Below the pieces are notes generated by a model, which had not been told where the DNA came from, made no database searches, and saw nothing but the letters and a program-made list of their open reading frames with translations. 64,000 nt of DNA from Leptonemataceae bacterium (GTDB taxonomy: Bacteria; Spirochaetota; Leptospiria; Leptospirales; Leptonemataceae), in NCBI GenBank assembly GCA_965227295.1, contig OZ245742.1, positions 5,376,001-5,440,000 of the forward strand. Reading direction: 5' to 3'. How positions within the stretch are numbered: the first letter of the stretch is position 1; each line of letters opens with the position of its first letter. This document shows, piece after piece, positions 26,971 to 60,999 of this stretch. Position numbers and translations under genes: made by a program.

Positions 26971-29100
26971 ATGGCGAAGAAGACGGCCGCGCAGGCAAAA
27001 TCAAAGAAGAAAGCGGCATCCGCAAAAAACAAAAAAAAAGCCGGAACCGCAAATCCCCCTCGTCGAAAAACGGCCGCCGGTACGAAGCCCGGCGACCGCA
27101 CGGCCGTAGAGAAGCGCATGCGCAAGCTGGCCGACGAGATTCGCAAACATCAGTATCTCTACTACGTCAAAAACAAACCCGAAATCCCCGACCGCGACTT
27201 CGATCACATCCTGGTAGAACTGCAACAACTGGAAGCCGATCATCCCGACCTGGCCGACCCGGACTCTCCCAGTCGCATCGTCGGCTCGGACCTGGACAGT
27301 GAATTCCCGAAATTCACGCACACCATACCCGTACTGTCCCTCAGTAATACCTACTCCACCGAAGAGGCCCTGGAGTGGGCCGAAAAAATCGCCGACGCCC
27401 ACACGAGCGATATCGGCGTCCAGTGGAAGGTCGACGGCGCAAGCCTCGTCGTGTACTACGAGGACGGACGTCTGGTGCGCGCCGTTACCCGCGGCACCGG
27501 GCAGGTGGGCGACGAGGTCACGAACAACGCCCTGACCATTCGTAACATTCCGCACCAGTTGCGCGAAAAGGTCACCGTGGCCGTCCGCGGTGAGGTCTAC
27601 ATGACCTTTGCGGACTTCGAAGAGTTCAACGAGGCCCTGGGCTGGATCTACGCCAACCCGCGGAATCTCGCAGCGGGTACGCTCAAACATAAAAAGTCCA
27701 GTGAAGTTGCAAAGCGCCCGCTCCGCTGGATGCCCTTCGACGGCCATCTGCCCGCGACGGTCATGAAAAACAGAAAGATCCGCCGGGACCGCGACATCTT
27801 GAAGTATCTGGAAAAACTCGGCCTCCCCGTATCCGCCGACAACAAGTTCGTAAAGCCCTCACAACTTCGTAAAACCATCACGGAATTCGCCGCGCAGAAA
27901 GACGGCGTGCCGATGCCCGTCGACGGCCTCGTTCTGAAAGTGGATGATCTGGAAGTTCGCGAACGACTCGGCTTTACTGCAAACAACCCGCGCTGGGCCA
28001 CATCCCTGAAATTCGAACCGGAGATCGGCGAGACAGCTGTTCGGGAAATCCAGGTGCAGACCGGTCGCACCGGCCGCGTCACACCGCGGGCAAAGCTCGA
28101 TCCGTTGAAACTCGCCGGTACCACCGTAACCTACGCGACCCTGCATAACGCGGACTACGTCGAGAAACTCGGCGTGCGCATCGGCTCGCGCGTGAAAGTC
28201 AGCAAGCGCGGCGAGATCATCCCCGCGGTGGAAGAAGTCGTCGATCCCGGCGACGGTCCCGCTTACAAGTTTCCGACGAAATGCCCCACATGCTCCACGA
28301 AACTCAACCGCGATGAAGACGCCGTCGACTGGATGTGCCCGAACCCTGAATGCGACGCAAAGATGCTAAATCGCCTCATCTTCTTCGCCGGACGCAAGCA
28401 GATGGACATCGCCGGACTCGGCGAAAAGGTCGTAACGATTCTATACGAAAAGGGATTCATCCGCCGCATCCCTGACATCTATCAGTTGCACAAGCAGCGC
28501 GAACAGTTAGAAGAACTGGAAGGCTTCGGCAAAAAGTCCGTGCAGGTTCTCCTCGACGGCATCGAAGCATCGAAGCAACGCGAGTTTCGGTACGTACTGC
28601 CGGCCCTGGGGCTGCGCGAAGTGGGCACTCACGTAACGGGCATTCTGCTCACCGAGGGCTACGACTCCGTCGAGAAGATCATCAAACTCGCGAAGTCGAA
28701 AGACGGCGAGGAGATACTGAAGAACATGGACGGCATCGGCCCGCGCATCGTAGAAGCCGTCACCGAACAGTTCCGGGACAAGCAGGTCCAGCAGCTCATT
28801 AAGGATCTCAAGAAAGCCGGGTTGACCCTGGCCGCGCCCGAACGCGCGGCCGGCACCGATCTCCCACAAATATTCGAAGGCCAGTCCTGGTGCGTCACCG
28901 GCAGCTTCACGAACTTCCGCCCGCGCGATCTCGCCATGGAAGAAGTACGCAATCGCGGCGGCCGCATCGTCACCGGCGTGAGCTCGAAAACCAGTCACCT
29001 GCTCGCGGGCGAAGGCGCGGGCAGCAAACTCGAAAAAGCCGAGAAGCTCGGCGTCACCGTGGTCAGCGAGGACGAATTTCTTAAGATGCTTTCAGAGTAA
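26971..29100 (+). CDS. ligA: NAD-dependent DNA ligase
   Basis: KVDG, TRG.G..G, RGEV, ANPRN.AAG, DGLVLK, Zn finger CPTC...CPNPEC, HhH repeats, BRCT. Confidence 0.98.
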   Translation: MAKKTAAQAKSKKKAASAKNKKKAGTANPPRRKTAAGTKPGDRTAVEKRMRKLADEIRKHQYLYYVKNKPEIPDRDFDHILVELQQLEADHPDLADPDSPSRIVGSDLDSEFPKFTHTIPVLSLSNTYSTEEALEWAEKIADAHTSDIGVQWKVDGASLVVYYEDGRLVRAVTRGTGQVGDEVTNNALTIRNIPHQLREKVTVAVRGEVYMTFADFEEFNEALGWIYANPRNLAAGTLKHKKSSEVAKRPLRWMPFDGHLPATVMKNRKIRRDRDILKYLEKLGLPVSADNKFVKPSQLRKTITEFAAQKDGVPMPVDGLVLKVDDLEVRERLGFTANNPRWATSLKFEPEIGETAVREIQVQTGRTGRVTPRAKLDPLKLAGTTVTYATLHNADYVEKLGVRIGSRVKVSKRGEIIPAVEEVVDPGDGPAYKFPTKCPTCSTKLNRDEDAVDWMCPNPECDAKMLNRLIFFAGRKQMDIAGLGEKVVTILYEKGFIRRIPDIYQLHKQREQLEELEGFGKKSVQVLLDGIEASKQREFRYVLPALGLREVGTHVTGILLTEGYDSVEKIIKLAKSKDGEEILKNMDGIGPRIVEAVTEQFRDKQVQQLIKDLKKAGLTLAAPERAAGTDLPQIFEGQSWCVTGSFTNFRPRDLAMEEVRNRGGRIVTGVSSKTSHLLAGEGAGSKLEKAEKLGVTVVSEDEFLKMLSE

Positions 29101-52737: not shown

Positions 52738-52938
52738 CTACGGTTCAACGAGTTCGTCGGGCTGGACGCCGGTCAGAAGATGCGGGTTCCCCTCACGATC
52801 GATGTACTGAACCGTAACGCCCCCGGCGCCCAGTTCCTTGATCTCCACCGATTGTCCCTGAAACACGAAGATACCGTTGTGCAGAAAGGTCGGCCGGTTG
52901 AGTGACTTGCGATCGCCGATCTTGAGGTCCGCGCTCAC
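52738..52938 (-). CDS. Small hypothetical protein (66 aa, beta-rich)
   Basis: GTGA overlap with the upstream gene; typical codon bias. Confidence 0.6.
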   Translation of the reverse strand: MSADLKIGDRKSLNRPTFLHNGIFVFQGQSVEIKELGAGGVTVQYIDREGNPHLLTGVQPDELVEP

Positions 52939-53759
52939 GCCTGGGCCCCCGAAGGGCCGGCCACGGCGTCCGCCTGCACCTCGCCTTTTTCGATGTAGGC
53001 GTCCTTGCCGGCCTGCTGCATCACATCGAAGAGATGCACATGCCGCGGGTCGAGGCGCGTGCCGATGTCGTAGTAGGCGCCGTCGAACTTCGCGCCGTCC
53101 ACGTGCGTACCGGTAAGCTTCGCCCAGCGCAAGTCGGAGCCGCGAAAATCGGCGTCCCGAAGGTCGCTGTTATTCAAAAAAGCTCCGCGCAGACGCGCGT
53201 TGCTGAGATTCGCACCGACAAACTTGCAGTTGATGAGATAGGCGTGGCTGAGGTCTGCGCCCTCGAAATCGACGTTGCTGAAGTCCTCGCCTTCGAGGAT
53301 GACCTGTTTGAGTTTTTCGTTCCGAAGATGGCCCTGCTCTTTCAATTTTTCCAGGGCGTAGGCGCGGGAGACCTGGTCGTCCGGCTGGATGCCGGTGCCG
53401 TTGCGATAGTCGGCCATGGCTTTTTGAAGGGCCTCGACCGCGGAGTCCGGGTAGTTCTTGCGGCGCTCCGGAAACTCGAACATATCTTCGATTTTTTCGG
53501 CGCTGATGGCCTCGGCCTCGGTGACGCTCTTGCCCTTCACCCACTCGGTGGCCATGGCCAGGGCGACCAGACCGAAGCCGCAGCCCGTGGTGGTGTAGCT
53601 CGCGTCGGTGACGACATCGTCTTCGATTTTGAGATACAGGCGGTATCCGTCTCCACAGCCCGTGTTCCGGTACGAGGAGACGACGCTCGCTCCTTCCATC
53701 TCACGATAGTTGAGACGCTCGTCGTTGATCTGCTTAAATCTTTCGAAGTCCATCGCCAT
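52935..53759 (-). CDS. NifU-N/IscU-like domain fused to pentapeptide repeats
   Basis: NTGCGD, TTGCG, EWVKGKS..EA; A(D/N)L/F pentapeptide repeats. Confidence 0.85.
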   Translation of the reverse strand: MAMDFERFKQINDERLNYREMEGASVVSSYRNTGCGDGYRLYLKIEDDVVTDASYTTTGCGFGLVALAMATEWVKGKSVTEAEAISAEKIEDMFEFPERRKNYPDSAVEALQKAMADYRNGTGIQPDDQVSRAYALEKLKEQGHLRNEKLKQVILEGEDFSNVDFEGADLSHAYLINCKFVGANLSNARLRGAFLNNSDLRDADFRGSDLRWAKLTGTHVDGAKFDGAYYDIGTRLDPRHVHLFDVMQQAGKDAYIEKGEVQADAVAGPSGAQA

Positions 53760-53832
53760 AGCTGCTAAGGTAAGCCCGCCGGGGAACGGCGTCAAGCCTG
53801 CCTTGGCCCGTTCGACTCCGACTTTCCGAACT

Positions 53833-56770: not shown

Positions 56771-56916
56771 AACGAATGGCCAGCCTGGCACGGCGGCGCG
56801 CGGTACGTCAAGCCAGTGGGCGCAGGGAAAATGCTTTGATCTCAAAAAACCGTGGAGAACTACGACGATTGGAACTGGAAGTCGGCGCTGGTTTTCGACT
56901 CTTGCGTTAGCGATCT

Positions 56917-58464
56917 TTATTTCGCCGCGCGCTTCTTCGCATTGCGCTTACGAACCACTTTCCCGATCATACTTTGCGGCATCATCTTGCGCAGCGACGG
57001 GTCCTCGAACTTACTGCGCAGGAGCCAGTCTTTCTTAACGTACTTGCGTTGAAACTCTTCGGCGATGGCGATGATTTGATCGAGGTCGCTGGAAATGCGA
57101 ACGTCCTGTTGCAGCGGCTCCTTGCGATGAGCGGAGTAATCGGTGTAACTGAATACATAGGCGGGGTAGTCCGGATCGACTTCGTCTTTGTTCGTCTGCC
57201 ACACCACGAACTTACGCACGGCCTGTCGACCGCGGCTGTACACGAGGCGCAGTAGAATCTGTGACGGCGGATACTCAATGCGCGGGACGGTCGGCTGAAA
57301 ACCGTCGATGAACACAAGGTCCGTGATCTGGGTGATGCGGACGTCCGGATAAACGGCGGACTTATCCTCGCGCATCCGAATGAACGTATTGCGCTGCATG
57401 CTGACGAACGGCACGTTTCGCACGACGCGGTAGGTTTTGTAGGTTTCGTGCTCGTACTCCAGCAACATGCGCAGATACGGCCGGCCGCCGCTGCGTTTCG
57501 TGAGAATGTCATCGCTGTTGAACTCAATGACGATGCGCGGCTCCACCATGTGATAGGCCGACTGCTGCGAATCCACGTGCACGTACCCGGAATTGATCTC
57601 CAGCTTTCGTAGCCGGTCGTAAAGTTCGCGGCGTTCGTCGTCACTGAATCCGTCGGAGACGCGCGTTAGAATCTGGAACGTGCCGTCTTCGCGCATGAGC
57701 GCGGTGAGTACCGAAGCGACGCGGCCCTGCCCCCGCGCGTCCGTGAACGCTTTGTAACCGACGATCACCGCATCCACACGATGCTCCGCCTTGAACTTGT
57801 AGCGGAACGGCAGATCGCTGCGAATCATTACGCCTTCGGCGCCGAATTCGCGGACCTGGCGCTCGTAGTACTGTAAGATGTCGCCGCGATCTTCGCTGAC
57901 GATCGTTTCCACGGGCGGCACCGGAGTTCCGGCAAAGAGAGTCTGCAGGCGTTCGTAAACCTGATCGTAGTCGTCGAAGTACTCGCCGTCCAGTTCAATG
58001 ATATCGAACGGAGCAAACCAGAGTTGCTCCAGATCTTTCGCGGTCTCCGGCCGGGACGTCAGTCGAATCACGTCGAAGATGCGCGTACGGTTGCCGTCCT
58101 CGCGCAGGACGATGAGTTCGCCCGGGATCAGGGCCGTGCGCACGCCGGCACGTTTCAAGATTTCCGCGGCCGTGTCGATGACAGGCAGGCCAATGTAAAC
58201 CGCGCCGCTCGGTCGAATCAAACAAGCGTTGCCGCGCTCGTAATACAATATGCTGTGCTCGCCGTCCATCTTGCGCGAGACGTAGAAGCGCGAGCCCGGC
58301 AGCCGGGGGACATCGCCCGCGTTGATCGAAGTGAATCGTGCGGCGACCTTTTCTTTATAGTCGCGCACCATGCGCAGCAGGTTCGGCTCAATGCTCTCCC
58401 GCGGGAGAATGTGAAAGTCTCCCAGGATGCGTCGCGCGATGGATGGATCGAGGTGAATCCTCAC
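56917..58464 (-). CDS. ATP-dependent DNA ligase-like protein with extra C-terminal domain
   Basis: Motif I RKMDG, III GEL, IIIa FDII, IV EGVMIR, V KFK, OB domain (DAVIVGY, V.DGFSDDER, EPRIVIEF), VI FIRMREDK. Confidence 0.85.
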   Translation of the reverse strand: MRIHLDPSIARRILGDFHILPRESIEPNLLRMVRDYKEKVAARFTSINAGDVPRLPGSRFYVSRKMDGEHSILYYERGNACLIRPSGAVYIGLPVIDTAAEILKRAGVRTALIPGELIVLREDGNRTRIFDVIRLTSRPETAKDLEQLWFAPFDIIELDGEYFDDYDQVYERLQTLFAGTPVPPVETIVSEDRGDILQYYERQVREFGAEGVMIRSDLPFRYKFKAEHRVDAVIVGYKAFTDARGQGRVASVLTALMREDGTFQILTRVSDGFSDDERRELYDRLRKLEINSGYVHVDSQQSAYHMVEPRIVIEFNSDDILTKRSGGRPYLRMLLEYEHETYKTYRVVRNVPFVSMQRNTFIRMREDKSAVYPDVRITQITDLVFIDGFQPTVPRIEYPPSQILLRLVYSRGRQAVRKFVVWQTNKDEVDPDYPAYVFSYTDYSAHRKEPLQQDVRISSDLDQIIAIAEEFQRKYVKKDWLLRSKFEDPSLRKMMPQSMIGKVVRKRNAKKRAAK

Positions 58465-59162
58465 GTTAGATCTTTCAACTCCAGGTTCGAAAGATGCAGC
58501 GCGAGGCGATAGGCGCGCCCGCGAACGCGTCCTTCAAGGAACGCACGGTACGGCAGGCCGCCGCGACTGAGCACCAGCGGCTCGTCTCCGCCGGGACCGC
58601 CGCCCAGAACCATGAAGGCGTTGCGTTGCTGAAGGTCCCGGGCCATGCCGTAGAGAAAGTCGTAGGTCAGGCCGTTGACGTGGCTTAACTGATACACACG
58701 AGAACTTACGAACATCGTGACGGCCTGGTCTTTCGAAAGATAACGTCCCGTCCACAGCACGGGGATTTCCGCGGAGATGTTGGCTTCGAGGGGCAGCCAC
58801 TCCCGGCGGCCCTGCTCGTTGCCGTCCGGGCCGTACTCGACTTCCTGCCAGCGGACCTGGTAAGCGATGTCCCCACCGGACTTGAGAAAGATGCGCCGGG
58901 TGTTCCGTACGATGCGGCCCGTGATCTCGAAATCGATCTCCGGGTCCTCGCGAATCAGAGCTTCGGCGACGTGTTCGGGACCGCCGGCTTCCGCGACGAT
59001 GCGTTCGTAACCGGTGGTCGCCGTGCTCTTCACGTAACGTACGGCTTGCGCCTGGTTTCCGGAGGCGTCCTGAAACGACGGGGCTTCCGCCTCAACCGGG
59101 GCGCGCTCCAGACCGACCAGTGCGTCACGGCGCTGATGATCGCTAAGATTGATTGATCGCAT
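58461..59162 (-). CDS. Hypothetical protein, putative diverged Ku-core-like
   Basis: Coupled to the ligase (GTGA overlap); VRYVK, YQL....TYDFLY.MARDL pattern resembles the Ku core. The ORF is secure; the fold is inferred. Confidence 0.55.
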   Translation of the reverse strand: MRSINLSDHQRRDALVGLERAPVEAEAPSFQDASGNQAQAVRYVKSTATTGYERIVAEAGGPEHVAEALIREDPEIDFEITGRIVRNTRRIFLKSGGDIAYQVRWQEVEYGPDGNEQGRREWLPLEANISAEIPVLWTGRYLSKDQAVTMFVSSRVYQLSHVNGLTYDFLYGMARDLQQRNAFMVLGGGPGGDEPLVLSRGGLPYRAFLEGRVRGRAYRLALHLSNLELKDLT

Positions 59163-59163
59163 A

Positions 59164-59802
59164 TTAAGAATCGTCTCCGGTTCCGCGCGAATGTCTTCCG
59201 GAACGTTGCATGGAAAAATCGAGGTCTTGCTCGCCCGGATCTTCGAATTCGTCGATGCGGCCGGTGTCCGCCCGTTCGAGGAAGTCCAGTTGTACGCGTC
59301 GACCGGTGACGAGAAAGAGTCGGCCCCGCGCGGGAATCAAGAATCCGGTCTCCGGCGAATGTCCCCCGCGGTACGAGAAGGGAAAACCGTAGAGTTCCTC
59401 ATGATCGCCGAGGGCCTCTGTTAATTCCGGAAGCGCCTCGCCGCGCAGAACATACACGGACGAAATCTCGTGATCATAATACTCATCGAGACCGAAGCGT
59501 TCCTGCAACACGATGGGTGCGTGAAACGCAGACGGCACTTCCGGTAACGGCCGGCCTGCGGCATCGACGGCGCTGAGCTCCGTGGGAGACAGCCACTGTC
59601 CGGCCTCGTTCAGATAACCGCTGCCCGTAGAACGAATCACGGTGGAGCCGTGATCATCGACGGCGGCCGGCTGTAGTTCACTACCGTAGTTGTCGACGGG
59701 CAGCCGTTCGCTGCGACCATAGAGCCGCGGCCGATCGATCTTCGCCGGCTGCAACGCAAACTCGCGGCCGTCGTGCAACTGGAATGTGAGAGTGCGGGGC
59801 AT
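59164..59802 (-). CDS. Hypothetical protein, putative diverged Ku-core-like
   Basis: GYLNEAGQWL..TEL, I...E....E......VYVL, LTEAL, FSYRG patterns resemble the Ku core; 1-nt gap to the next gene; alternative start at 59841. Confidence 0.6.
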   Translation of the reverse strand: MPRTLTFQLHDGREFALQPAKIDRPRLYGRSERLPVDNYGSELQPAAVDDHGSTVIRSTGSGYLNEAGQWLSPTELSAVDAAGRPLPEVPSAFHAPIVLQERFGLDEYYDHEISSVYVLRGEALPELTEALGDHEELYGFPFSYRGGHSPETGFLIPARGRLFLVTGRRVQLDFLERADTGRIDEFEDPGEQDLDFSMQRSGRHSRGTGDDS

Positions 59803-59988
59803 CGCAGGGGAACTCTCGCGCAAGAACGCGATTTCTTCCATTAATAAACTACAAAAATGATCGGCACGGCGACCGTCCCGGGCAAGCCTGGAAGCGTGGG
59901 TCTCTCGATTTTTCTCGGCGACCGCATTACCGAGGGCCGGCTGCGTCCCGCGGATCGCGGGACGTTACCGAAGCGAATCTGCGCACAC

Positions 59989-60999
59989 TTACGGAACGAA
60001 TCGGCCGAGGACGCGCCGTAAGAATTCCTCGCCGCGTCCGTGACGAATGCGCAGCTCCATTTCGAGGACGTGCAACCGGGAGCGCCAGTCCGGGTTCTCG
60101 TCGCGGCGCAAAAGATCGTCGATACGCACGAAGTCCTTCGCCGTCGTAATCCAGGGCAGCTCCGGCGGATCGGCAAAGAGCCGGTCCAGGTCTCGCCGCG
60201 CATAGAAATGATGATCGGGAAAACTGCGGCGCTCTGTTAATATGATTCCATATGTACTTAAAGAATTAAAAAAGGCCTCCGGATTGCCGATGCCGCAGAA
60301 GGCTCCGGCCGGAGTCCCGGCGGTGAGCGGCGGTTCAATGGAACGCGGGGCGTGTTCGGCCTCGTAGATTGTTGCATGGGCATGCGCAGCCAGGGCTTCG
60401 TGCCAGGCCTTCAGCAACTCATCGCCGGCCAGGTTCGCCCTCGTCAGTAAGATCGTATCCGCGCGAGTTAAGGCATCGAGGCGTTCCCTGAAGCGGCCCG
60501 CGGGAAAGACCCGCACGCGCTCCGGCGGCACCGTAGCGTCGATCAACACGAGTTCGTGATCGCGATACACCAGGGGATTCTGAAAGGCGTCGTCCAGTAA
60601 AACGCAGTCCGCCGAAGTACCAAAACGTTCGATCAACACGGCCCGCTTCGGACCGGCCGCCACACGCAGCCCCGGCGAACGTGCGAGTAACAACGCTTCG
60701 TCTCCGGCCGTGCGGACATCCGCAAACAGCCGCTCGCCGTCGGAGACCAGGACACCCTCCGGATTCTTTGACGCCGTGGCCCCGTAACCGCGCAGAGCAG
60801 CCAGGGTCGGAATGCCCAGGCGTTCCAGTTCGGCGGCCAACAGTAACGTCGCCGGAGTCTTGCCGGTGCCGCCGGCGGAGATGTTACCGACGGAGACGAC
60901 GTACTTGTGTTCGTAACGCCGCTGATCCCGGAGACGACGGGCGTAGGTACGCCGGTGCAAGAACAGATAGAGTTCCTCAAGCAGGCGCAGAGGATTCAT
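59989..60999 (-). CDS. lpxK: Tetraacyldisaccharide 4'-kinase
   Basis: SVGNI.AGGTGKTP, RGYG, GDE, LDDAFQ, PAGRFRE, FPDHH, TTAKD. Confidence 0.95.
   Translation of the reverse strand: MNPLRLLEELYLFLHRRTYARRLRDQRRYEHKYVVSVGNISAGGTGKTPATLLLAAELERLGIPTLAALRGYGATASKNPEGVLVSDGERLFADVRTAGDEALLLARSPGLRVAAGPKRAVLIERFGTSADCVLLDDAFQNPLVYRDHELVLIDATVPPERVRVFPAGRFRERLDALTRADTILLTRANLAGDELLKAWHEALAAHAHATIYEAEHAPRSIEPPLTAGTPAGAFCGIGNPEAFFNSLSTYGIILTERRSFPDHHFYARRDLDRLFADPPELPWITTAKDFVRIDDLLRRDENPDWRSRLHVLEMELRIRHGRGEEFLRRVLGRFVP

Follow-up and report, generated by a model that had tools for sequence, protein, structure and literature searches.

In a window of 64,000 nucleotides from a Leptonemataceae bacterium (assembly GCA_965227295.1, contig OZ245742.1, positions 5,376,001 to 5,440,000), three co-oriented genes of the minus strand encode two small proteins, here called A and B, and an ATP-dependent ligase (Table 1). 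An earlier reading of the letters alone (the sequence-only reading) had taken this triad for an undescribed end-joining system of two different Ku-like proteins and a stand-alone ligase, and its description of the locus stands. The genes are translationally coupled, with a 1-base gap between the stop of A and the ATG of B and a GTGA overlap between the stop of B and the ligase start; they lie between lpxK and a family III CoA-transferase gene, and the housekeeping NAD-dependent LigA is encoded separately, at 26971-29100 of the window. A public contig spans 55500-61100 of the window without a break or mismatch and may be where this DNA comes from. The family alignment of A begins at 59802 and not at the second in-frame ATG at 59841. 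A scan of the 59803..59988 spacer upstream of A returned 0 sigma-70-type promoter sites, and among 70 non-redundant upstream regions no shared operator rose above shuffles, the signal consisting of A/T runs only.

Relatives were collected by a genome scan with B, which gave at least 197 confirmed relatives. The locus counts below use the best 80, the gene-identity correlations 49 non-redundant loci and the ligase alignment 53 members; the tree of B is a quick tree.

Table 1. Features of the triad, numbered from the first base of the window
Feature	Position	Strand	Description
Gene A	59802-59164	minus	Open reading frame, 212 aa; acidic Ku-like subunit with predicted beta-barrel and bridge, without helical arm
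Gene B	59162-58461	minus	Open reading frame, 233 aa; Ku-like subunit with predicted beta-barrel and longer bridge carrying a helical insert
ATP-dependent ligase gene	58464-56917	minus	Open reading frame, 515 aa, GTG start
A residues 176-198, acidic tail up to and including the DFSM motif	59209..59277	minus	Candidate partner-docking peptide
Ligase nucleotidyltransferase domain (about residues 55-225)	57790..58302	minus	From the 53-sequence alignment and the profile alignment to solved ligases
Ligase OB domain PF04679 (residues 246-368)	57361..57729	minus	Pfam match; motif VI invariant
Ligase conserved C-terminal domain (about residues 396-484)	57013..57279	minus	From the alignment
Spacer between lpxK and A, 186 bp	59803..59988	minus	Contains an alternative ATG at 59841

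Predicted folds and pairing of A and B

Neither A nor B matches any family in Pfam, NCBIfam, PADLOC or PHROGs, their comparison with PDB sequences gave nothing credible, and an atlas search with a B relative gave no usable match. The Ku profile PF02735 matches 0 of 63 A relatives and 0 of 59 B relatives at E up to 1. Their AlphaFold2 models (predicted local distance difference test, pLDDT, 85.6 for A and 87.5 for B) nevertheless present the Ku core fold, a beta-barrel broken by a long bridge. Among the Foldseek matches listed, both models retrieved Ku chains only, the best being Bacillus subtilis Ku (9vnq, E 7e-5) for A, and Ku80 and Mycobacterium tuberculosis Ku (9i91, E 7.4e-6) for B. A second structure search, made without Foldseek by VIA against 48,161 chains, again ranked Ku first, both for A (Z 10.4, root-mean-square deviation (rmsd) 5.5, 156 residues aligned) and for B (Z 12.8, rmsd 4.5, 167 aligned), and its best rows pair 144-167 residues with bacterial Ku, the figure for SPOC domains, which have no bridge, being about 100-115. 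Ku, whose order of core elements the sequence-only reading had inferred for both hypothetical proteins, is the top match in two structure searches. In structural alignments the two proteins are 8-14% identical to Ku; weak profile alignments of A with Ku and of A with B are in register across the bridge and the next strand.

The structural alignments stop at Ku residue 171-188 of 227-229, and neither model has a helix after the last strand: as modelled, the C-terminal helical arm of Ku and its LigD-recruiting helix are absent from A and B. The earlier statement that both proteins lack the arm is therefore borne out, and the accompanying one on basic tails is not true of the whole family, as 6 of 80 B proteins carry tails of at least 40 residues, all net basic. 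Long Lys/Ala/Pro-rich tails of B, like those of canonical Ku, are seen in P0125 (which also has a SAM domain), P0161, P0164, L047, L062 and L066.

A different kind of tail characterises A. An acidic run and an xDFxM-type motif terminate 75 of 78 A proteins, the other 3 having close variants, and D195 is invariant in the family alignment; the window copy continues for 14 residues after its DFSM motif, and its nearest relative, P0004, is likewise extended. The predicted interface with B names no residue of this tail, which may thus be available to another, third protein. A look for longer, fused forms of A found none, which is weak evidence, and a word-based search for A returned 1 relative only, a search evidently too insensitive, since A adjoins B in 78 of 80 loci.

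Dimer modelling covered one pairing, A with B. The complex prediction scored 0.74 (runs 0.72-0.75) against 0.01 for the best of 3 controls, and passes a mark that 116 of 157 solved pairs attain and 2 of 215 mismatched ones, counts that are only roughly valid for predictions with our own alignments. The runs share at least 83% of their contacts, with a partner pLDDT of at least 80. About 320 contacts extend over the arms and the barrels, arm to arm at B93-A44 and B105-A35 and barrel to barrel at B148-A108 and B153-A113. We read this pattern as the one that a Ku ring needs, with residues 168-178 of A lying along the barrel of B at the position of the Ku arm. The model is thus that of an intertwined dimer of Ku type, in line with the heterodimer that had been suggested from the sequence.

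Domains and motifs of the ligase

The third protein is made up of a short N-terminus, a nucleotidyltransferase domain, an OB domain, a conserved C-terminal domain and a basic tail. Each of the six nucleotidyltransferase motifs listed by the sequence-only reading occurs once (KMDG at 65, GEL at 115, FDII at 153, EGVMIR at 210, KFK at 223 and FIRMREDK at 361), and the OB fold it recognised is a PF04679 domain (E 1.3e-9, above the cut-off) common to 53 of 53 members. Ten residues are invariant across these members (K65, G68, E116, E210, G211, K223, K225, R365, D367 and K368); they include motif VI, R365-x-D367-K368, and no variation is seen in the catalytic residues of five motifs (I, III, IV, V and VI). 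The protein thus has motifs I (lysine), III, IIIa, IV, V and VI of ATP-dependent DNA ligases besides its OB domain. With these residues invariant and an OB domain in all members, self-adenylation by the ligase is likely.

As predicted, POL and PE domains are absent, both from the window ligase and from the 53 members. The protein also has no N-terminal DNA-binding domain: the motif I lysine is already residue 65, and where the family profile is aligned to solved ligases the match starts no earlier than about residue 240 of the latter. All 40 solved structures matched by this profile are DNA ligases, the best being 3rr5 (E 3.6e-23), which we take to be an archaeal-type ligase, followed by human ligase I (7e-18), ligase IV (1.5e-12) and LigD (1vs0, 3.7e-9). 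The best NCBIfam match of the window ligase is the non-homologous end-joining (NHEJ) ligase domain TIGR02779 (E 1.7e-18), at 66.9 bits against a cut-off of 227.75.

The C-terminal domain, about 90 residues after the OB domain, is found in nearly all loci that have a ligase, with R406, K418, K426, R447 and W480 invariant, and it ends in a WGR-like helix (KKGW). The likeness to WGR is confined to that helix (hhalign: 25 columns, 27%, E 0.0007, score 23, with 45 controls at most 14.4); the rest of the domain does not align, the global alignment gives 0.9%, and Pfam WGR has 0 matches in the 53 members. An atlas comparison that points to a WGR cluster (0.78) is a lead only. In a single sequence, P0190 (381 aa), B is joined straight to this C-terminal domain without the ligase core, which suggests that the domain works at the ring that B would form. 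The ligase is thus not a minimal enzyme: it has this extra conserved domain, a basic tail in the window copy and, as set out below, has lost arginines.

Distribution and gene neighbourhood

A conserved triad, which the sequence-only reading had made a touchstone of its proposal, emerged from the neighbourhood survey. The three genes stand together in 73 of 80 loci, with A upstream of B in 78 and the ligase downstream in 75, and in 7 of the 7 other loci the missing gene is found elsewhere in the same genome (the ligase in 5 of them); the median gap between A and B is 15 bases. Neither of the computational results that would have told against the sequence-only reading, proteins without a Ku/SPOC-like fold or homologues that do not occur together with the ligase, was obtained, and its interpretation is supported. 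The 80 loci span nine phyla, protein matches add Clostridia and Acidobacteriota, and a profile search yielded 644 clusters at 50% identity. A distant subfamily (L140) keeps the same gene order and features. Pairwise identities of A, B and ligase correlate at 0.70-0.77 over the non-redundant loci, against a permutation maximum of 0.27, a correlation that kinship explains in part. Split or shortened copies occur in L019, L021, L032, L033 and L093. One genome of the same order as the window, G052, carries a full triad and, on a different contig, an additional A-B pair (L095:7868-9253) that has no ligase next to it.

Within lineages the triad is rare. Among 190 genomes of the Leptospiria class, 3 have B, this one included; it was found in neither of 2 genomes of the same genus, and one planctomycete order has it in 6 of 201. 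The planctomycete copies form one supported clade of the quick tree, as do the proteobacterial ones. The G052 copy groups with the planctomycetes and the window copy does not, which suggests separate gains. The interval from lpxK to the CoA-transferase gene (window 56845-59989) is a variable slot with counterparts in L090, L091 and L092: it is empty in G004, whose triad lies on another contig, and in G019 and G020 it is occupied by different genes. A recent foreign origin of the triad was considered and rejected, as its GC content (0.599) matches that of the genome (0.598); GC at third codon positions is 0.66-0.75 in the triad genes and 0.70-0.81 in four neighbour genes. Mobile genomes account for few copies: B was found in 0 of 72,556 plasmids and 50,697 phages, and a viral collection gave 1 triad locus. 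One triad (L096:1-12640) sits on an element with RepA, a tyrosine integrase, a RepB primase, a ParA-like gene and phage-like genes.

Canonical Ku is present in 3 of 49 carrier genomes (supplied by 50 of the 80 loci) and absent from 46, many of these genomes being incomplete. The window genome, which is 93.6% complete, gave no match to PF02735 Ku, LigD POL or LigD PE.

The neighbours, of which 66 proteins were scanned, are mostly unrelated, apart from a few recurrent companions. In 11 of 80 loci, from two phyla, a fusion of an AEP primase-polymerase with a HAD phosphatase-like domain lies near the triad (L045:428-1690; L059, L061, L062, L065-L068, L075, L008 and L017); in 9 proteobacterial loci it immediately precedes A, and in 2 planctomycete loci it is found 1.3-2 kb beyond the ligase. 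Its AEP part matches Pfam AEP-TOTE (E 4e-9), its HAD part has a DxDGV motif and weak Pfam matches below the cut-off, and no close solved structure was found for the fusion, which is a candidate end-healing and gap-filling enzyme. An EEP phosphatase follows the triad in 7 of 80 loci. Six planctomycete triads (L006:8401-9549, L008, L017, L029, L040 and L063) adjoin a protein combining BRCT-like, MerR helix-turn-helix and tetratricopeptide-repeat regions. In 5 Bacteroidales loci a strawberry-notch-like helicase of 1,200 residues directly follows the ligase (L070:8078-11686, L007, L011, L012 and L014), with a kinase further on, and an AAA_5-type ATPase lies near the triad in 5 Bacteroidales loci (e.g. 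L005:6651-7709). The distant subfamily has, at L140:8752-12674, a large ATPase-like gene without Pfam match and a possible metallopeptidase-like partner, both by reading only. Elsewhere in the window, at 52935-53795, a NifU/IscU-type scaffold domain is fused to pentapeptide repeats.

Readings of the triad and known systems

Considering the folds, the predicted pairing, the co-inheritance and the ligase motifs, we think it probable that A and B form a heterodimeric Ku-like ring which, with its dedicated ligase, serves end joining; ring geometry, binding of DNA ends, contact between tail and ligase, ligation and any cellular role are what we infer from them. A and B would be two very divergent Ku paralogues that make up one ring from an acidic and a basic subunit, and this ring would load on a double-stranded DNA end. 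The ligase, having no DNA-binding domain of its own, would work with the ring in a template-free rejoining of broken ends. The Ku arm that recruits LigD would have been lost, and ring and ligase would probably be coupled through the acidic DFSM tail of A and the basic C-terminal domain of the ligase. End processing would be optional and come, where present, from separate genes, namely the primase-polymerase-HAD phosphatase fusion and the EEP phosphatase, which by analogy may supply what the POL and PE domains do in LigD.

Several observations weigh against this predicted system. The likeness to Ku is remote, with whole-chain TM-scores of 0.41-0.49 and rmsd of 6-8 Å (Foldseek, both models); hhalign of A and B with 16 canonical Ku gives 0.4% and 0.9% (11.5% with distant B members), and of A with B 0.4%, rising to 16% when distant B members are included. 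Solved structures include dimers of Ku, so that the A:B score may reflect likeness to them. The loci with AEP-HAD and EEP come largely from kin genomes, and neither gene has an orthologue in the window genome. Mutual exclusion with canonical Ku, also considered, is not significant: in one order canonical Ku occurs in 1 of 6 B carriers and 55 of 195 others (Fisher p 1.0), and the planctomycete carriers, 2 of 15 of which have it, do not differ significantly from these 55 of 195 either (p 0.36).

The active site of the ligase counts on the same side. The arginine of motif I (KxDGxR) is absent, position 70 being F in 21, L in 18, M in 11, H in 1 and C in 1, which accounts for 52 of the 53 members. 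The S-R of motif Ia is replaced by N-P or N-S, with an arginine in 7 of 53 only, and a nine-residue arginine-bearing loop between motifs IV and V is missing in the profile alignment to solved ligases; the arginines of motif Ia and of this loop presumably bind phosphates in DNA ligases. That of motif I binds the ribose of AMP in ATP-dependent DNA ligases (PMC7470946). With three arginine positions typical of these enzymes lost or degenerate, one might speculate that the ring holds nucleic-acid ends but that the nucleotidyltransferase, instead of sealing DNA breaks, acts on RNA or RNA-DNA ends or goes no further than adenylating (capping) ends for their protection. The motif I consensus, KxDG(E/H)(F/L/M), fits such a chemistry, as do matches to Pfam RNA_ligase in 28 of the 53 ligases (E up to 0.1, best 1e-7), and the best weak matches of the neighbouring HAD domain include the RNA-repair family HAD_SAK_2 (E 5e-4, below the cut-off). 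We nevertheless consider this unlikely: all 53 members have the DNA-ligase OB domain and an intact motif VI, and the solved structures that the family profile matches are DNA ligases without exception. Moreover, the family has conserved basic positions of its own (K/R37, R/K126, R128 and 227), which may compensate for the lost arginines; K/R37, R/K126 and R128, together with R406, K418, K426 and R447 of the C-terminal domain, could replace them.

The charge of A poses another difficulty for a heterodimeric clamp. The median isoelectric point is 4.2 for A and 9.1 for B (5.9 for the window B), and the A core has a median net charge of -11, where 16 canonical Ku have about -3; such acidity is unusual in a DNA binder. 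Conserved basic columns number 14 in B and 6 in A, the divergence of A is the faster (median identity 33% vs 43%), and it is to B, not A, that the ligase C-terminal domain is fused in P0190. All this would suit a B homodimer as the DNA-binding ring, with acidic A as a regulator, a DNA mimic or an adaptor that swaps into the ring or links B to the ligase. However, A retains the barrel, the bridge and conserved basic residues near its N-terminus (R3, K21 and R24), the modelled contacts with B run over both arms and barrels, and A core and B together carry a charge of about -7, close to the total of about -6 for a pair of canonical Ku cores, so that we regard the homodimer as quite improbable.

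Still less probable, in our view, is that the triad serves mainly mobile DNA or conflict, by circularising or protecting incoming ends, capturing foreign DNA or repairing the damage of defence nucleases, rather than general chromosome repair. The patchy spread, the slot, which relatives fill differently or leave empty, and the one copy on an element with replication and integration genes speak for such a role, which the sequence-only reading had entertained together with one in phage interactions. It has little support, given the near-absence of the triad from plasmid, phage and viral collections and the lack of any PADLOC match; the single supported clades of planctomycete and proteobacterial copies fit long residence, and the GC content is like that of the genome. 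Biochemically it is in any case compatible with a heterodimeric Ku ring. Finally, that A and B are protein-binding SPOC-type beta-barrel proteins without a DNA channel, sharing with Ku the barrel only, has next to no chance: SPOC domains reach Z 7.6-8.5 for A and 8.1-11.7 for B, the best (11.7) about 1 unit under the best Ku (12.8), and the sequence links to Ku are marginal, but Ku comes first in all four structure searches, the alignments take in the long bridge, and the ligase is the partner in 80 of 80 cases checked.

The end-joining reading can be carried further, to a third lineage of Ku-based end joining in the form of a three-subunit holo-ligase. The ring would replace the DNA-binding domain, the tail of A would tether the C-terminal domain of the ligase, and the active site, rebuilt without the arginines, may join ends that LigD cannot. 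Among prokaryotic systems such an enzyme could come closest to Ku70/Ku80 with ligase IV, and could even be a sister of it, as it would have an obligate heterodimer, an acidic-tailed subunit and a ligase profile nearer to archaeal and eukaryotic ligases than to LigD. We hold this extension to be doubtful, if less so than the alternatives above.

What the models describe is a cryptic, widespread and apparently obligate three-gene Ku-like heterodimer with a remodelled ligase. Surveys of end joining count genomes by Ku profile, and one recent study trimmed its eukaryotic Ku set by PF02735 (PMC11936186). As that profile misses the A/B family and canonical Ku is absent from 46 of 49 carrier genomes, lineages scored as free of end joining, gut Bacteroidales and many planctomycetes among them, may in fact have it. 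The triad would also provide a compact three-gene system for the study of an asymmetric Ku ring together with a ligase whose active site has been rebuilt, and it bears on how often Ku became a heterodimer, and a small portable end-joining kit could serve the genome editing of laboratory bacteria.

Canonical bacterial NHEJ, with its Ku homodimer (PF02735; PDB 9vnq, 9i91) and LigD, resembles the triad in the Ku-type barrel and bridge and in the linkage to an ATP-dependent ligase that has a PF04679 OB domain and no helical DNA-binding domain. The triad differs in its two unlike subunits, unseen by PF02735 and without the C-terminal helices; through these helices M. tuberculosis Ku recruits LigD and stimulates it (PMC12658125, PMC9638933). 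Its ligase, unlike LigD, lacks POL, PE and the canonical arginines and has a C-terminal domain of its own. A PF04679-type OB domain without a DNA-binding domain defines the class of LigC and LigD (PMC7470946). LigC is likewise a ligase core without a DNA-binding domain, but it is the core only and shares an operon with PrimPolC (PMC7470946), whereas the triad ligase has its C-terminal domain; no LigD-type primase-polymerase was found in the window genome. LigB and archaeal-type ligases give the best solved-structure matches of the triad ligase profile, yet LigB has an N-terminal helical domain and a cluster with Lhr and a metallophosphoesterase (PMC7470946), neither of which belongs to the triad. 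Bacterial ATP-dependent ligases fused to WGR also add a small domain to a core, and the triad ligase ends in a WGR-like helix, but theirs is another OB type, PF14743 (PMC7470946), and the triad ligase has no Pfam WGR match.

With Ku70/Ku80 and ligase IV the triad shares a heterodimeric ring, as predicted for A and B, and Ku80 cores are among the top structural matches. Eukaryotic Ku80 ends in an acidic-hydrophobic peptide, which the end of A may resemble. A, B and the ligase differ from the eukaryotic proteins in having no vWA domain, arm, SAP or BRCT, and our analysis gave no evidence of a common descent of the two heterodimers.

For Ku3 and Ku4 of Sinorhizobium meliloti a heterodimer acting with LigD4 was proposed from genetics (PMC6379672), so that a bacterial Ku heterodimer is not by itself new. 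Here again two Ku genes are co-inherited in an operon, and one partner only of Ku3/Ku4 has a lysine-rich tail (PMC6379672). Ku3/Ku4 are, however, recognisable Ku orthologues with a full LigD in alphaproteobacteria (PMC6379672), whereas A and B are beyond profile detection, have one dedicated ligase family and span nine phyla. Tandem pairs of canonical Ku were seen in six planctomycete genomes (G344:C59, G256:C80, G270:C54, G247:C1, G377:C21 and G251:C245), possibly Ku3/Ku4-like heterodimers outside alphaproteobacteria.

The suggestion that the system is undescribed would hold for the family and not for the idea of a heterodimer. We found no earlier description of the triad family in the open literature, outside supplementary tables, which could list it, and the passages searched of a 2025 study of Ku evolution (PMC11936186) and of a metagenome survey of repair enzymes (PMC10140301) contain no such family. 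The triad resembles Ku-ligase end joining and is none of the PF02735 Ku, LigD, LigC, LigB or Ku3/Ku4 types; what appears new here is a family that lies beyond the Ku profiles and has a ligase of its own.

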